Positions 768 through 24,225 are shown, counted from the first letter of the stretch. The stretch: 64,000 nucleotides of DNA from Spirochaetia bacterium (GCA_965140585.1 OZ223267.1:352001-416000), one strand, 5' to 3'. The notes: generated by a model from the letters alone, not told the origin. Translations and numbers: made by a program.

Positions 768-773
768 AAAAAA

Positions 774-944
774 CCCCGCGATGCCGCTTGAGGAAAAATC
801 TCTTGAACTCCAGGGTTCAAGTGGGTTTCCTTTTCGATGCATCCTGTTCGCCAATTGGAAAACAATTCAACACAGAAATATGGAATCCCGTTTCTGAGGT
901 TTGTCCCAAGAGATTTACGCCCCGCCCGAACATCGCAGGGTAAA
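774..944 (-). ncRNA. ssrS: 6S RNA
   Basis: Directly downstream of zapA (classic synteny). 5' CCCTGCGATGTTC pairs with 3' GCGGCATCGCGGGG; internal CTTGAAC...GTTCAAG as in known 6S RNAs; ~170 nt. Confidence 0.9.
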
Positions 945-5486: not shown

Positions 5487-5556
5487 ATCGTTCTCCTTGT
5501 GTGATGAATATGACCCGAATCATTTAATAAAAGGAAGGTAGACTGGTTGGTCTGTC

Positions 5557-5720
5557 CAATAGCTCTCCACTTTTAAAGTGACAGTTCCCAAGGTGTTAAC
5601 CTCAGACCCCAGGGGTGAACAACAGGATGTCCATTCCCTTCGGCGGCGGCCCCTTTCAAATCTGCAATCTAAAATCCTGTTTTCAATGCAGCTTACTGAT
5701 GACCAACCGCGCCTCTATTG
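5557..5720 (-). promoter_or_regulatory. Lysine riboswitch (L-box)
   Basis: Minus strand AATAGAGGCGC...AAAGGGG...GCCGAA...CTGGG...ACTGTCA...TGGAGAGCTATT; kissing-loop complement ACAGGAT/ATCCTGT; upstream of lysC. Confidence 0.93.
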
Positions 5721-5833
5721 ACCCGGAAAAAATTATAATTCCTTCTATCACATAGCCGAATTTAAGTCAATAATCGGTAATGAAGCACTTTGTTATTTGA
5801 CAACAGCCCTAACAACTGATTAATATGCTGGTA

Positions 5834-19612: not shown

Positions 19613-22126
19613 CTAATCAAGAAGCGGATTGTAATCCGGATTACTGTCTGTTGTGCCGCCTTCTGTGCCAGTTTCTGAACTAGAGTCCAGTAGAAAATCA
19701 GGTAAATCCAGCTCGATATTGTCGATATTATAAAGCGGTACATCCTCTATAAGCAGGTTGTTCTGAAGCCTCTGAAGCAGTTCTTCATCACGCTGCTTCT
19801 CAAATTTGTGAATGTCACAGGTTTTTTTAGGCTCTGTTCCCACCAGGAAAATCTCATCGATTGTACCGTCATCACAGTCATTTGTAGGGAGCAGTCCTGA
19901 AACACTGCAGACTTTTACACGTATGAGCCCTGATTCCGGTTCAGGAAATTCTTTAATCGGAAGATCTTCATGAATTGATTTCATGTACCGAACCCACCAA
20001 TGGCCGGTCGCAGTTGAACCGGTAAGGTATCGGCCGAGTGAAATTCCCGGGGTATCAAAGCCGAACCACATTGCCGTTGTATAATACGGCGAAAATCCGA
20101 GAGTCCAGGCATCCTGCCAGTTCTGGGTGGTTCCTGTTTTACCTGCCATCGGCATTCCGTCAAAGCCGCCGATTTCCCTGGTTCTGTTATGTAATGTTCC
20201 CCCATACATTTGTACGGTGCTCTGAAGCATATCAGTCATTATATAGGCTTCCTGCGGAGTCATTATCTGATCTTCGCCTTTATTCTTCTGTTTCTCTCTC
20301 AGGCGTTCCTTTTCAGGCTCGAGGATAATATTGCCCTGACGGTCCTCAACGCTAATGATAGCAATGGGAACCACCTCTTTTCCCTGATTTGGAAAGGTTG
20401 CAAAGGCTCTTGCCATGTTAATTGGAGCGAGCGCTGTAACACCCAGACCGAGAGGGAAGCCCCTTGGGAAGAGAGTTTCATCATTACGTTTGTCATAAAG
20501 ACCGGTCATTCTTGATATTCTTTCAATTGCAGCATCGAAGCCTATTTTTTCAAGAACCTGCAGCGACGGTACGTTCATTGAAGTTGCAAGCGCGTATCTG
20601 GCTCTAACTGACCCTTCCCAATCCCCGAGATAGTTCAACGGTTCATAGGGGTTGCCGGCCTCGTCAAAGAATACGATAGGGCCGTCATAGAGCCTGGTTG
20701 CAGGCGTGATTTTCCTTGCTGATATAGCAGCAGAATAATAAAGCGGCTTTATTGATGAGCCGGGACCTACAGTAGCATCAACCGCCCTGTTGTACTGCTT
20801 GGTTTCAAAGTCCGAACCGCCTATCATCGACAGAATTCGGCCTGTGTTGTTTTCAAGCGTTATAAGAGCACCTTCAACTGTTGTTTTCTGGCTTCTCTGT
20901 TTTTCCTTTTTGAATCCTGCCATCGTGGCTTTGTTCAGTCCGCTGAGGCCGAACATCGATGAAATCATGTAAAGTGAAGAGTTCAGGGAGTCGTAGTAAT
21001 AATCGGTAGCAGCCGATTTCTGTTTTGCTCCGGTTACCCTTATATCGTCAATGTTAAAGGTCAGTGAAAGGAGATCGACTATTCCTACAAACTGGTTATT
21101 GACTATGTCGTAGCGCTGATCGGAGTAATAACGGTATCTGTCATTGATATCGATGTAGGCGTCATCCATTATTGACTGAGCCTTCTGCTGGATGCCGAGA
21201 TCAAGGGTTGTATGAACAACATAACCGTCTTTATTTACATCGACTGCCCCGTAAAGCATATCGCTAAGCTGTAGTCTTACATACTCACTGAAGTAGGGCG
21301 CGAGACTGTTATTGTCAAAGTAGGCGCTTGCGATGTTTGATCGGCTGTAGTCAAAATTGTCCCAGTATTCCGCGAATGAATTGTCAGCCTGTTCCCGTGT
21401 ACAGTAGCCGAGTTCCACCATGTGGTTGAGAACATCGATCTGCCGGTCACGTGCTGTATCAGGATGATTGATTGGAGAGTAAAGGGCCGGGCTTGCAAGC
21501 TGTATTACCAGAATTGCGGATTCCGCAAGCGTAATATCACGTGCAGAATGCCCGAAATAGAACTGGGAAGCTGATTCTACCCCATAGGTATTGTGTCCGA
21601 AATATACTTCATTCATGTATATTTCAAGGATTTCATTCTTGGTAAGCGCTTTTTCTATCTGGAATGCATACCAGATATCATTTAATTTTCGTTTGATGGA
21701 TATCACTGATCTGTCTGAATAATGTGCACCGGCAACCTGCATTGTAATGGTACTGAAGCCTGAAAAATAATTACCGGCTACTATATTGTAGACGGCTCTG
21801 AAAAAGTGTTTAAAACTTAATCCGTTGTGCTCATAGAAATTGGCGTCTTCACGGCTTAAAAGGGCATAAATCAGGTGTTTGGGAAGTTCTTCAACCGGTA
21901 CTATTTCACGTTTCTCGTCGGAGAAAAGTTCCGTTATCAGATCACCGTTCCGGTCCAGTATCTGAGTCGGCAGGGCCGGTTCATAGTTCTGAAGATCCGC
22001 CCGGATGTCCGTATTTTTAATTGTGCTGAGGGTTTTCCCGAGTACAACGCCTAACAGGACCGCAAGTATCACACAAACAGCAAGAACTACTTCAATAGTT
22101 CTGCGTTTTTTCTTATTGGAAACCAT
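19613..22126 (-). CDS. Class A penicillin-binding protein 1A
   Basis: EDANFYEHNG and STITMQ (transglycosylase); GSSIKP, SMN, KTGT (transpeptidase). Confidence 0.93.
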   Translation of the reverse strand: MVSNKKKRRTIEVVLAVCVILAVLLGVVLGKTLSTIKNTDIRADLQNYEPALPTQILDRNGDLITELFSDEKREIVPVEELPKHLIYALLSREDANFYEHNGLSFKHFFRAVYNIVAGNYFSGFSTITMQVAGAHYSDRSVISIKRKLNDIWYAFQIEKALTKNEILEIYMNEVYFGHNTYGVESASQFYFGHSARDITLAESAILVIQLASPALYSPINHPDTARDRQIDVLNHMVELGYCTREQADNSFAEYWDNFDYSRSNIASAYFDNNSLAPYFSEYVRLQLSDMLYGAVDVNKDGYVVHTTLDLGIQQKAQSIMDDAYIDINDRYRYYSDQRYDIVNNQFVGIVDLLSLTFNIDDIRVTGAKQKSAATDYYYDSLNSSLYMISSMFGLSGLNKATMAGFKKEKQRSQKTTVEGALITLENNTGRILSMIGGSDFETKQYNRAVDATVGPGSSIKPLYYSAAISARKITPATRLYDGPIVFFDEAGNPYEPLNYLGDWEGSVRARYALATSMNVPSLQVLEKIGFDAAIERISRMTGLYDKRNDETLFPRGFPLGLGVTALAPINMARAFATFPNQGKEVVPIAIISVEDRQGNIILEPEKERLREKQKNKGEDQIMTPQEAYIMTDMLQSTVQMYGGTLHNRTREIGGFDGMPMAGKTGTTQNWQDAWTLGFSPYYTTAMWFGFDTPGISLGRYLTGSTATGHWWVRYMKSIHEDLPIKEFPEPESGLIRVKVCSVSGLLPTNDCDDGTIDEIFLVGTEPKKTCDIHKFEKQRDEELLQRLQNNLLIEDVPLYNIDNIELDLPDFLLDSSSETGTEGGTTDSNPDYNPLLD

Positions 22127-22174
22127 GAGATTACAGTAGGGGCATGGCGGACTTTTGTCAATACTGGATGGTGT

Positions 22175-22208
22175 AAAAAAAGGGGCCGGACTGCTGGGCA
22201 GGCCGGCC
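22175..22208 (-). terminator. Intrinsic terminator
   Basis: GGCCGG-CCTGC-CCA-GCAGT-CCGGCC-CC-T7 on the minus strand. Confidence 0.85.
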
Positions 22209-22266
22209 GAAAATGTGTCGGTAAATATAGTAAACTGGGAGGGGAACTATATTAAGTCCCGACACA
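22175..22266 (-). ncRNA. Candidate small RNA with C-rich (anti-SD) loop and its own terminator
   Basis: Sigma28-like promoter, then hairpin TGTGTCGG/CCGACACA plus AATATAGT/ACTATATT with loop TCCCCTCCCAGTTT, then GC stem and T7. Confidence 0.6.
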
Positions 22267-22270
22267 ATTA

Positions 22271-22297
22271 TTATCGACTTCTGTGTAAAAAGATTTA
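22271..22297 (-). promoter_or_regulatory. Sigma28 (FliA)-type promoter
   Basis: TAAA-N15-GTCGATAA versus consensus TAAA-N15-GCCGATAA. Confidence 0.65.
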
Positions 22298-23281
22298 GTT
22301 CTCTTCTACAAAAATATCAAGAAACAGTGAAATTTTACAGTCTTTTCCTGGTGTTACAGTGATTTTTTTGCTTATTTTATAATCACCATATTTAATGAGC
22401 ACAACATGCTCTCCAGGGAGCAGTTCAAGTGTCTTTCCGGCAGGATATTCAATCTTTTCTCCGTCGATGAAAACATCGGAATTTTCCGGTACATCGAGCA
22501 TTGCCGAGCTTTTCAGAATCTCAGGCTCAAGATTCAGCTGAAGTGTTTCTCCCTTTCGAATTGTAACAGTCTTTCGGAGAGGCGCGGCGCCTTCCATATC
22601 AAGATTGACTGTATGTGTACCGGTTTTCAGGGTAACTGTTTTTTCGGAAGCAGAAAGGCGGCTGTTATCGACCCTTAACGTATATTCAGCATCGGACAGG
22701 CTGTCAGCTGTGTTTATTGAGATATTGAGGACACCTGAATCACTGAGAACCGGGCTTACACTGATTTCAAAACTGCTTGAATACAAGCTTGAAGGAAAAC
22801 CCTTCATCAACGGCAGTATGGTAAACATCACCGGAAGATCAGCCTTGGCCAGAGGGCTGGAAATGACTGTTGTATAGGGAGATGTTTCAGTTTCAAGTTT
22901 TTTAAGGTAGGGTATCTGTATATATATCTTCGCGGCATCTGAAAGAAACAGTGTGTCATACTTGCTTCCGTAGTATGTTCCGATACCGGTACTGATTTCC
23001 GGTGATATACGCTTGTAGATGCTCAGGGCAAAGCTGTTGCTGTATTCCCTGAGATCGGAAGGCAGTTTCAGTTCAATCTCAAAGCCTTCGACAAAGTCTG
23101 AGGCCGGATCTACGGTTACTGCGAACACATCTTCGATATTCATTAAGAAGGAAACAGCATTGCCGGATGAAGAATCAGAAAGGGAAATGCTTTCAACGAC
23201 CTTCCCTCTGATATTTTCGCCGTAGGCCGCCGCAGCTGAGTAGATTATTATCAGAATTAGTGCCGAAAGTTTTCTTTTCAT
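22295..23281 (-). CDS. Secreted protein with C-terminal PEGA-like domains
   Basis: Signal peptide; VPENSDVFIDG...LLPGEHVV. Confidence 0.72.
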   Translation of the reverse strand: MKRKLSALILIIIYSAAAAYGENIRGKVVESISLSDSSSGNAVSFLMNIEDVFAVTVDPASDFVEGFEIELKLPSDLREYSNSFALSIYKRISPEISTGIGTYYGSKYDTLFLSDAAKIYIQIPYLKKLETETSPYTTVISSPLAKADLPVMFTILPLMKGFPSSLYSSSFEISVSPVLSDSGVLNISINTADSLSDAEYTLRVDNSRLSASEKTVTLKTGTHTVNLDMEGAAPLRKTVTIRKGETLQLNLEPEILKSSAMLDVPENSDVFIDGEKIEYPAGKTLELLPGEHVVLIKYGDYKISKKITVTPGKDCKISLFLDIFVEEN

Positions 23282-24225
23282 TACTTCAGACCGGGGGTCA
23301 GAACAGATGGATCCCTTGAAGCTCCGCTCCGTCGAATCTCAAAATGCAGATGAGGTCCTGTAGAACGGCCGGTAGTTCCGACTTCCGCTATCATCATAGT
23401 TGAATTTACTTTATAGTGCAACTCAACAAAAATTTTATTTAGGTGCCCGTAAAAGGTGCTGTATCCGCCGCTGTGCTCTATAAGAATGTAGTTTCCGAAT
23501 GTTTCATTATAGCCTGTGTCCGTAACTTCTCCTTCTCGGGCCGCGTATACGGGAGTCCCCTCGGGGGCTGCGATGTCTATACCGTCATGAAAGGTCGGGT
23601 GCCCTGAGAAGGGGTTCTTTCGCATCCCGTATCCTGAGCTTACAATTCCGTCAGGCAGGGGGTTGGAGAATAGAATCCCGAGAAAATAGGCTCGTTCTAT
23701 GCTGTGAAATGATTCACCGTGTATAAAATAGTAATTTCTCAGTTCAGATTCAGAATCAGATACCGGCATATAAATGCCGATCTCGTTTTCATCAGTAAAT
23801 GAGGCCATTCTCCATGAATGAAAAATAAAATCCAGATCTTTTACGGGTTTTTCCGGGATGAAAAGCCCGGGCTGGCCGGGAATCAGCAGCTTTCTTCCTG
23901 CGAGGTATTCTGTTGAACTGTATATGCCGTTTATAGTTGCAATGCTCTCATAGCTCAGGCCGGCGGCAGCTGCTATTGAAAAGACTGTATCACCGGCTTC
24001 CGCTGTATATTCATAAAGCATTAGCGGAGGCAGGTCTTTTCGGGAGGCGGCCGCACGGTGGTAAAAGGAAATATCCTCCTGCAGCTGTCTGAAGTAGATA
24101 TCATTGAAAACCAGTTTCCGGATAACCGGATAGCGGTCTGCAGCCGCGGAGAGCGGGAGTACTATGGCTGTCAGCAAAAGCATTGAGATTACCATGTGCT
24201 TCGGAAAAATCCGGATGAAAAGCAT
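23281..24225 (-). CDS. LysM + M23 peptidase
   Basis: GDTVFSIA LysM; HDGIDIAAP, STGPHLHFE. Confidence 0.92.
   Translation of the reverse strand: MLFIRIFPKHMVISMLLLTAIVLPLSAAADRYPVIRKLVFNDIYFRQLQEDISFYHRAAASRKDLPPLMLYEYTAEAGDTVFSIAAAAGLSYESIATINGIYSSTEYLAGRKLLIPGQPGLFIPEKPVKDLDFIFHSWRMASFTDENEIGIYMPVSDSESELRNYYFIHGESFHSIERAYFLGILFSNPLPDGIVSSGYGMRKNPFSGHPTFHDGIDIAAPEGTPVYAAREGEVTDTGYNETFGNYILIEHSGGYSTFYGHLNKIFVELHYKVNSTMMIAEVGTTGRSTGPHLHFEIRRSGASRDPSVLTPGLK

Follow-up and report, generated by a model that had tools for sequence, protein, structure and literature searches.

The window, a stretch of 64,000 nucleotides of a Spirochaetia bacterium, contains a gap between a PEGA gene and a PBP1A gene. 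The original prediction placed a complete minus-strand unit in this gap, combining TAAA-N15-GTCGATAA with a two-tier hairpin and, after it, a GC terminator with U7. Each of these parts was found where it had been placed, with the PEGA and PBP1A genes on either side as described. The features are as follows:

23281-24225: M23/LysM gene
22295-23281: PEGA gene, upstream of the RNA
22297-22294, minus strand: TAAA, -35-like element of a sigma28-type promoter, read from the sequence
22278-22271, minus strand: GTCGATAA, -10-like element of the sigma28-type promoter, read from the sequence
22175..22265, minus strand: predicted small RNA of ~91 nt (covariance model R1, 89.5 bits)
22266-22214, minus strand: two-tier hairpin, from the MFE fold and covariation
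22266-22259 and 22221-22214, minus strand: outer stem, TGTGTCGG / CCGACACA
22253-22246 and 22231-22224, minus strand: inner stem, AATATAGT / ACTATATT
22245-22232, minus strand: 14-nt hairpin loop TCCCCTCCCAGTTT, also written UCCCCUCCCAGUUU
22246-22236, minus strand: seed UUCCCCUCCCA, the last stem base plus loop, from conservation and complementarity to start regions
22208-22184, minus strand: GC-rich stem-loop GGCCGG.CTGC-CCA-GCAG.CCGGCC of the intrinsic terminator (whole terminator 22175..22208)
22181-22175, minus strand: T7 (U7 in the RNA), preceded by CC after the terminator stem-loop
22161-22156 and 22138-22133, minus strand: sigma70-like PBP1A promoter, TTGACA, N17, TACTGT, not part of the RNA
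19613-22126, same strand as the RNA: PBP1A gene (Transgly and Transpeptidase), downstream of the RNA

The -35-like TAAA shares bases with the PEGA stop codon TAA (22297-22295), and a spacer of 15 nt separates it from GTCGATAA. We infer that the RNA starts 6-8 nt past the -10 element and that its 3' end falls within the U7 run. RNAfold gave an MFE of -36.5 kcal/mol (z = -5.78), with none of 200 shuffles as stable, and its structure is exactly the two-tier hairpin plus terminator that had been read from the sequence. No ATG occurs on the predicted RNA strand. Both BLAST and the covariance model R1 find one copy in the genome (4.85 Mb), and the proposed genome search for paralogues returned none by either method.

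A scan of the whole window with Rfam 15 at gathering thresholds, also proposed with the original prediction, returned two matches, 6S RNA and a lysine riboswitch, neither of them in this region. In a permissive scan of 22050-22400, the best overlapping score was 19.1 bits for sRNA71, against a gathering score of 50, and the element reaches the gathering threshold of no Rfam 15 family. Literature searching in the main text of available papers returned no description of the RNA; an entry under a numeric label in a transcriptome table is possible. The RNA is absent from Rfam and seems to lack an annotation.

Neighbouring genes

The position of the element next to PBP1A is strongly conserved in related genomes. 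In 85/99 loci it is followed by PBP1A on the same strand; upstream, PEGA is present in 59/99 and M23 in 40/99, the M23 count being limited by flank length. Because there is no terminator between PEGA and the RNA, the sequence of the RNA is also the 3' UTR of the M23-PEGA mRNA. It has the layout of a 3' UTR-embedded sRNA, in that the terminator is common with the upstream mRNA and the promoter sits at the end of the PEGA coding sequence.

PBP1A had been predicted to possess a promoter of its own. The end of this promoter lies 7 nt from the ATG (22126). A simple promoter scan did not call it, because its -10 element fits TATAAT at just three of six positions. Among related loci, 57 of 99 have TTGAC[AT] beyond the terminator, 70-190 nt past the core, compared with 1 of 99 control windows. 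With a conserved TTGACA box belonging to PBP1A itself, the element is not simply the leader of that gene. By eye, no Shine-Dalgarno sequence is visible for PBP1A, and hence its mRNA may be leaderless.

Conservation and covariation of the RNA

We used positions 22100-22420 as a BLAST query against 40 relatives and the genome itself (41 genomes). The hairpin core was found in 32 of the 41 genomes, covering 23 family labels. The core-bearing genomes were found via BLAST and not via a pattern, and the 15-mer UAGUUCCCCUCCCAG around the seed is exact in all 32. In a pattern scan with one genome per species, at least 119 genome records carried the core. Among the 80 titles listed, all are spirochaete MAGs except one "uncultured bacterium," and the groups among the matches listed include Spirochaetaceae, Treponemataceae, Treponema sp., Sediminispirochaeta, Salinispira, Alkalispirochaeta, and Rectinemataceae.

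Covariation across relatives had been named as a check on the structure. Compensatory change was seen in 20 of 22 pairs among 100 homologues, which were aligned to the model, a procedure that favours the structure. The compensatory pairs are distributed over the outer stem (6/6), the inner stem (5/6), and the terminator stem (9/9). In this alignment, 95.3% of the cells were paired vs 84.3% in shuffles (0/500 reached the observed value) and 30-44% when the partners were slid. MAFFT/RNAalifold, run independently, recovered these helices, and 10 of its 20 pairs were compensatory. Because the stem changes are compensatory, a conserved reading frame is incompatible with them. The element has its own conserved promoter, a covarying terminator and no coding potential, which are the marks of an independent unit. 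It is a conserved gene and not a chance arrangement, and the proposed module of promoter, hairpin, and terminator behaves as gene-like and single-copy.

For a wider search, the covariance model R1 was built from 142 sequences and run against 151 genomes sampled across the phylum. Matches were obtained in 49 of them, with high coverage under some family labels (f40 13/14, f54 6/7, f49 4/5, f32 8/10) and no match under others (f41 0/16, f46 0/15, f44 0/6, f35 0/5). We inspected 20 R1 matches, mostly the weaker ones. A hairpin presenting CCCCUCCCA was seen in 19, of which 17 have a UU prefix; the match in G143 was false on inspection. The loop core CCCCUCCCA is retained in all 19 true distant homologues, in which the stems and the 3' side of the loop vary freely. 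The f32 genomes are single-contig genomes of ~2.8 Mb plus one of 1.14 Mb, and their loop is UUCCCCUCCCACC(C/U)A. Within the class, the inner stem UAUAG/CUAUA is invariant. This invariance exceeds the needs of pairing and hints at an extra constraint such as a protein partner. The predicted sRNA gene is conserved through much of the phylum Spirochaetota.

The sigma28-type promoter

FliA recognises a TAAA element followed, after N15, by a specific -10 sequence. A sigma28 promoter in this sense has a -35 element TAAA and a -10 element GCCGATAA about 15 nt apart, and TAAA-N15-GTCGATAA at 22297-22271 has this form. To describe the promoter across homologues, 142 of 143 unique sequences were anchored on CGA 20-33 nt before the core. 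The resulting logo reads (T/C)TAA, 16 mostly A/T positions, and G-N-CGATAAT, and its spacing to the hairpin is constant. Each of the two A residues of the -35 element is present in 131 of 142 sequences, the anchoring CGA in 142/142, and the following T and A in 131 and 140, respectively. The string TAA-N17-19-CGAT occurs in 115 of 143 homologues and in 0 of 104 control windows of the same size. The promoter is kept at its fixed distance also at loci where no PEGA gene is detected upstream.

As given in an excerpt of PMC9481697, the RACE-mapped sigma28 promoter of T. denticola flaB2 has a -35 element TTAA and a -10 element CCGATAA. The logo of the RNA promoter agrees with this promoter (PMC9481697, in the same excerpt). 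The assignment to the sigma28 type made in the original prediction is therefore in keeping with the consensus, with the mapped flaB2 promoter and with the counts against control windows.

TAAA-N15-NNCGATAA occurs 33 times in the genome. Two of these 33 sites precede genes whose N-termini, read by eye, are FlgM-like and FliS-like. In G045 and G061, which belong to distant lineages, TGGTATACT stands by eye in place of the sigma28-type -10 element and is possibly an extended -10 element for sigma70. A second sigma28-like site, beside flaB just outside the window, was considered and dropped; its fold is not significant (z -1.07), and a full-length counterpart exists only in a genome of the same genus.

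Predicted targets

The loop UCCCCUCC differs from the anti-Shine-Dalgarno sequence UCACCUCC by one A-to-C change; the 3' end of the organism's own 16S rRNA is GGAUCACCUCCUUUC. We searched both strands of the genome for exact complementarity of at least 10 nt to the 12-nt loop. Only 13 sites were obtained, one of which is the antisense of the RNA gene itself. Four of the 13 are the translation-initiation regions of ftsZ, fliF, fliI, and fliO. Their Pfam identities are Tubulin/FtsZ_C, YscJ_FliF, T3SS ATPase, and FliO, respectively. The four lie on contig C4 of the genome (G000), 54-78 kb before the start of the window, and the fliF and ftsZ start regions are 76-100 kb from the element. Duplex energies predicted with a 17-nt loop are -22.0 to -25.4 kcal/mol at the four targets vs -3.9 to -15.5 kcal/mol at nine other start regions of the same flagellar operon. 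At the target sites, a G is found at the position where optimal pairing with the 16S 3' end needs U.

For the flagellar genes, conservation of the sites was scored in 22 carriers, namely 18 of the 32 RNA-bearing relatives and four phylum-level carriers, together with three flagellated relatives without the RNA. The set omits close kin and fragmented assemblies (G001-G004, G006, G008-G010, G017, G022, G025, G026, G031, G037). A match was an exact complement of at least 7 nt in a window reaching from 45 nt upstream to 21 nt downstream of the predicted start.

fliF: The site at 283952 reads CAAUGGGAGGGGAA-AUG. A match is present in 18 of 22 carriers, mostly of 10-12 nt, and the remaining four sites are G-runs that still pair through G·U. 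In the flagellated relatives without the RNA, the sites are GUGGGAGGUGAA (G013), UAAGGAGCUAUG (G035), and CAGGAGGUUCGG (G011).

ftsZ: The site at 273751 reads UCUGGGAGGGGGCAGCAA-AUG. The exact complement reaches 7 nt or more in 34 of 36 carriers and 8 nt or more in 31 of 36; the two carriers below 7 nt have G-runs that allow 11-12 nt of pairing when G·U is tolerated. In eight related genomes without the RNA, at least 7 nt is reached in one (G013, 7 nt) and at least 8 nt in none, although these genomes may represent two or three evolutionary losses, so that the contrast of 36 vs 8 overstates independence. All eight have plain GGAGG sites.

fliI and fliO: The sites are CCUGGGAGGGGAGAAAGUGAAGAUG at 287766 and UCGGGAGGGGAA-AUG at 298019. 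Matches are present in 11 of 22 carriers for fliI and in 9 of 14 for fliO. Complementarity is less consistent here than for fliF and ftsZ and is not universal.

Other flagellar genes: Lower scores were obtained for fliE (4/22), fliM (3/18), fliP (3/15), and fliQ (3/16), and for flgB, fliJ, orf209, and motB (two each). No match was found at the start regions of fliG (0/22), fliH (0/21), flgC (0/22), flgE (0/19), motA (0/19), and fliN (0/15).

The invariant CCCCUCCCA is complementary to conserved sites in the unlinked fliF and ftsZ mRNAs, as expected for a seed. The C-rich loop had been proposed to fit G-rich Shine-Dalgarno regions, and the fliF and ftsZ counts bear this out. The carrier with the reduced genome of 1.14 Mb (G141) has kept the RNA, with matches of 9-11 nt at fliF and ftsZ. 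Ten non-repeat GGGAGGGGA sites were inspected in this genome, and the clear start regions among them are those of ftsZ and fliF alone.

In two genomes, counts of the 9-mer GGGAGGGGA are near the control (G014, 307 sites vs 274; G019, 28 vs 25), and the frequency of the 9-mer is hence uninformative there. Specificity in G014 comes from position only.

Link to flagella and co-occurrence outside the class

Among the 41 related genomes, the RNA is found only where FliF is present, and FliF is present in 32 of 32 RNA-bearing genomes. FliA is over the cut-off in 31 of these 32, the exception being G002, which is 81% complete. FliF was not found with the query used in G015, G021, G023, G028, G029, and G034, all of which are without the RNA. 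Five of these six are also without FliA above the cut-off; G023, 84% complete, has FliA. Three genomes have FliF but no RNA, of which G011 and G013 have FliA and G035 does not.

We also examined five outgroup genomes that are negative by the model (G042, G048, G051, G053, and G056). In G048 and G053, the sites at fliF and ftsZ are plain, which is consistent with the hypothesis of pairing. G051 has a G-rich GGGAGGGAAG at fliF only. In G056, fliF has GGGAGGGGAAG, and the 10-mer occurs 20 times genome-wide vs 6 for the control. In G042, fliF and ftsZ each have the motif. Co-occurrence of RNA and motif is imperfect outside the class.

Apart from one candidate in G042, neither sensitive model searches nor inspected seed-pattern sites revealed a homologue in the five outgroups. 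The exact-seed sites viewed were those with a predicted open loop and a downstream T-run, and for G042 and G051 additionally 7 of 9 sites. They proved to be antisense of target sites or coding sequence, except for one hairpin in G042. This hairpin, GCGGCAGAC / loop CCCCUCCCAAUCCUCAAUUU / GUCUGCCGC, has a 9-bp stem followed by a U-run and is differently built. With the seed in the terminator loop, its layout is like that of RepG.

Ordinary terminators account for the weak model matches looked at in G013 and G015, as well as for the top ten in G042, G056, G051, G048, and G053. G021 has one weak model match (E 0.07). A variant RNA was sought in G013, where the fliF and ftsZ sites are GGGAGGUGA and the loop would be CACCUCCCA, but all nine matches were coding or antisense of target sites.

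Discussion

We consider it probable that the element is a FliA-driven, trans-acting sRNA of ~90 nt that masks the fliF and ftsZ sites and thereby links flagellar completion to basal-body initiation and division. As the conserved promoter suggests, RNA polymerase with the flagellar sigma factor FliA (sigma28) would transcribe the RNA. The first hairpin would then present the invariant loop UUCCCCUCCCA, which is like the 16S anti-Shine-Dalgarno CACCUCC but has C for A. This loop is predicted to pair over ~8-12 nt with the unusually G-rich ribosome-binding sites (C)UGGGAGGGGA(A) just upstream of the fliF and ftsZ starts, and the fliI and fliO sites would also fit the loop in many genomes. Such pairing would cover the Shine-Dalgarno sequence and reach the start codon. 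A duplex in this place normally blocks binding of the 30S subunit. Since the predicted duplex extends to the start codon, translational repression would be the most probable effect.

In physiological terms, completed hook-basal bodies would lead to release of sigma28, and the RNA would then damp the making of new basal bodies and modulate FtsZ synthesis. FliF forms the MS ring, the first building block of the flagellum. The circuit would couple flagellation to cell division. A bolder version is tentative, and we put it at somewhat below an even chance. According to it, a sigma28-gated anti-Shine-Dalgarno mimic would act as a checkpoint throughout the phylum, its loop out-competing the ribosome at the tuned GGGAGGGG sites that fliF and ftsZ have and that fliI and fliO often share. 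It would determine how many flagella are made and couple septation to their assembly. The sites would have co-evolved by a U-to-G change that weakens 16S pairing and creates pairing with the RNA, and the arrangement would have been kept even in the 1.14-Mb genome.

An action in cis would give the element a different meaning, either as a structured 3' UTR or terminator of M23-PEGA or as a sigma28 leader or attenuator reading into PBP1A, with no targets in trans. Its conserved position upstream of PBP1A could point that way, as could its place in the 3' end of the PEGA mRNA with no terminator between, the recurrence of both neighbours (PBP1A in 85/99 loci, PEGA in 59/99), and the lack of a visible Shine-Dalgarno sequence at PBP1A. 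However, the promoter keeps its distance even where PEGA is not detected, the hairpin is followed by a strong covarying terminator, and past this terminator the TTGACA box is present in 57/99 loci vs 1/99 controls. An effect in cis would also leave unexplained why an invariant loop is complementary over 10-12 nt to starts 76-100 kb away, and why the motif is gained and lost along with the RNA. We regard this reading as improbable. Equally small is the chance we give to an RNA that binds or titrates a protein, e.g., a KH-domain or S1-like factor with affinity for C-rich RNA, at the UAUAG-loop-CUAUA hairpin, with the G-rich fliF and ftsZ sites conserved separately for strong or specialised initiation. 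The class-wide invariance of the loop and the adjoining stem, beyond the usual needs of a base-pairing seed, speaks for it, as do the G-rich fliF sites of G056 and G051, where the RNA was undetected. For Borreliae, a survey quoted in an excerpt of PMC11607428 detected no Hfq. In the distant homologues, though, stems and the 3' loop part vary while CCCCUCCCA stays in 19 of 19, as a seed would. The target motif leaves the 16S optimum exactly where pairing with the RNA is restored, and RNA-less relatives have plain GGAGG at both genes. CsrA was rejected as a reader of the G-rich sites, as its presence does not follow the motif: G011, G013, and G035 have CsrA but neither RNA nor motif, and G026 (99% complete) lacks CsrA but has the RNA and has kept the ftsZ motif.

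The pairing may also occur as proposed but with the opposite result, i.e., activation or protection, by stabilising the flgB-operon and ftsZ transcripts or by a reversible anti-Shine-Dalgarno mimic that times translation. In E. coli, sigma28-dependent sRNAs act both positively and negatively on flagella number (excerpt of PMC10578931), which lends this outcome some credit. The predicted duplex, however, lies over the Shine-Dalgarno sequence and extends up to or into the start codon, an arrangement that normally blocks the 30S subunit, and we think activation unlikely, if a little less so than the two preceding readings. Masking of the fliF and ftsZ sites in trans is the reading we prefer.

Control of translation by C- or C/U-rich loops is known from RepG (H. 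pylori), RsaE/RoxS (Firmicutes), and S. aureus RNAIII, which pair with G-rich Shine-Dalgarno sequences or leaders. We found no homology to these RNAs, and promoter class, targets, and taxon all differ. Rfam holds some staphylococcal sRNA families, and sRNA71 was the sole nearby match. UhpU, MotR, FliX, FlgO, and CJnc170 are possibly outside Rfam 15, so the lack of a match to the element in that release is to be read with this in mind.

Closer in promoter class are UhpU, MotR, FliX, and FlgO of E. coli, which are likewise sRNAs under the flagellar sigma factor and feed back on flagellar synthesis (PMC10578931, in excerpt). UhpU corresponds to a 3' UTR whose upstream gene is unrelated (same excerpt of PMC10578931), much as the spirochaete RNA sits in the PEGA 3' UTR with its promoter over the stop codon. 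The E. coli sRNAs differ in phylum and are studied with Hfq, which is among the keywords of that paper; as far as the excerpt goes, their targets are lrhA, fliC, and ribosomal-protein mRNAs (PMC10578931), whereas the predicted targets of the spirochaete RNA are the ribosome-binding sites of fliF, fliI, fliO, and ftsZ. Unlike the E. coli set, conservation of the spirochaete RNA spans a phylum. CJnc170 (FlmR) is a FliA-dependent sRNA of C. jejuni, a polar flagellate, and its overexpression shortens flagella and lowers motility (excerpt of PMC11187230). Late-to-early negative tuning is the parallel; the sequence is probably unrelated, and ftsZ and fliF are not named as targets in that excerpt (PMC11187230). 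CJnc170 is known by experiment, as the excerpt describes (PMC11187230), whereas the spirochaete RNA is predicted by comparison.

With its occurrence in many families, including treponeme lineages, the RNA would be conserved as broadly as few other regulatory sRNAs of the phylum. For a base-pairing sRNA, its broad distribution and predicted target pair are unusual. Even if the pairing fails, a new and strongly supported structured RNA family is left. In spirochaetes, the number of periplasmic flagella at each end of the cell has to be set, and new flagella have to be built where the cell will divide. One conserved RNA, with a late flagellar-gene promoter and a loop that fits the fliF and ftsZ sites, offers a genetically testable hypothesis of how the two may be connected.

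Spacer and start region beside the RNA

In many homologues of the predicted sRNA, the segment that separates the first hairpin from the terminator carries a short conserved single-stranded motif, CCUAAC; in others this segment has a small additional CCCG-N3-4-GGG hairpin. These variants were seen in related loci L010, L013, L016, L018, L022, L028 and others. The window copy has neither element before its terminator.

Window 22124-22161, minus strand: PBP1A promoter and start region, TTGACA-N17-TACTGT, with 7 nt between promoter end and ATG

As the promoter stops 7 nt short of the ATG, the PBP1A mRNA may be leaderless, and a Shine-Dalgarno sequence is apparently absent before the ATG in this region. 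Of 99 related loci, 57 also have the TTGACA box, which is present in 1 of 99 control windows.

Other structured RNAs and sigma28-like sites

Window 769-944, minus strand: 6S/SsrS RNA match (RF00013, 65.8 bits vs a gathering score of 46.4)
Window 5552-5725, minus strand: full-length lysine riboswitch aptamer (RF00168, 84 bits)
Contig C4 of the window's genome (G000), 350624-350650, plus strand (L179:624-650): second TAAA-N15-CCCGATAA site; the window begins about 1.4 kb further along

The second sigma28-like site is divergent from a flaB gene and has no ORF downstream. It was rejected as a conserved RNA, which it probably is not, because it lacks a significant fold (z -1.07) and a full-length match is found in the same-genus genome G001 only, G005 giving a 43-nt partial match.

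Three flaB 5' UTRs (read by eye), outside the window: G000 C6:~1243990, C4:~350570 and C4:~349500

In each of the three leaders, a short hairpin whose loop reads AAGGA or AGGGA (e.g., GGGCAAGGAUGCCC) is followed on its 3' side by an AGGAGG Shine-Dalgarno sequence. Judged from the sequence, this combination is the classic two-site CsrA layout.

Loop complements and predicted targets

Window 7924 (G000 C4:359924), plus strand: CUGGGAGGGGA, exactly complementary to the RNA loop over 11 nt
G042:C13, ~36838 (L311): candidate alternative form of the sRNA, consisting of one 9-bp hairpin (loop CCCCUCCCAAUCCUCAAUUU) and then a U-run

The CUGGGAGGGGA site lies within an 820-codon open frame and not at a start codon. 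The candidate hairpin in G042, an outgroup spirochaete genome, comes from a family which the covariance model of the RNA scored negative, and all GGGAGGGGAA sites in that genome (4 of 4) are directly 5' of start codons.

In G000, ftsZ (C4:273768) is located about 10 kb upstream of fliF (C4:283963) on the same strand, and the same arrangement and distance are found in several relatives (G014, G141 and others). The predicted targets ftsZ and fliF are therefore chromosomal neighbours too.
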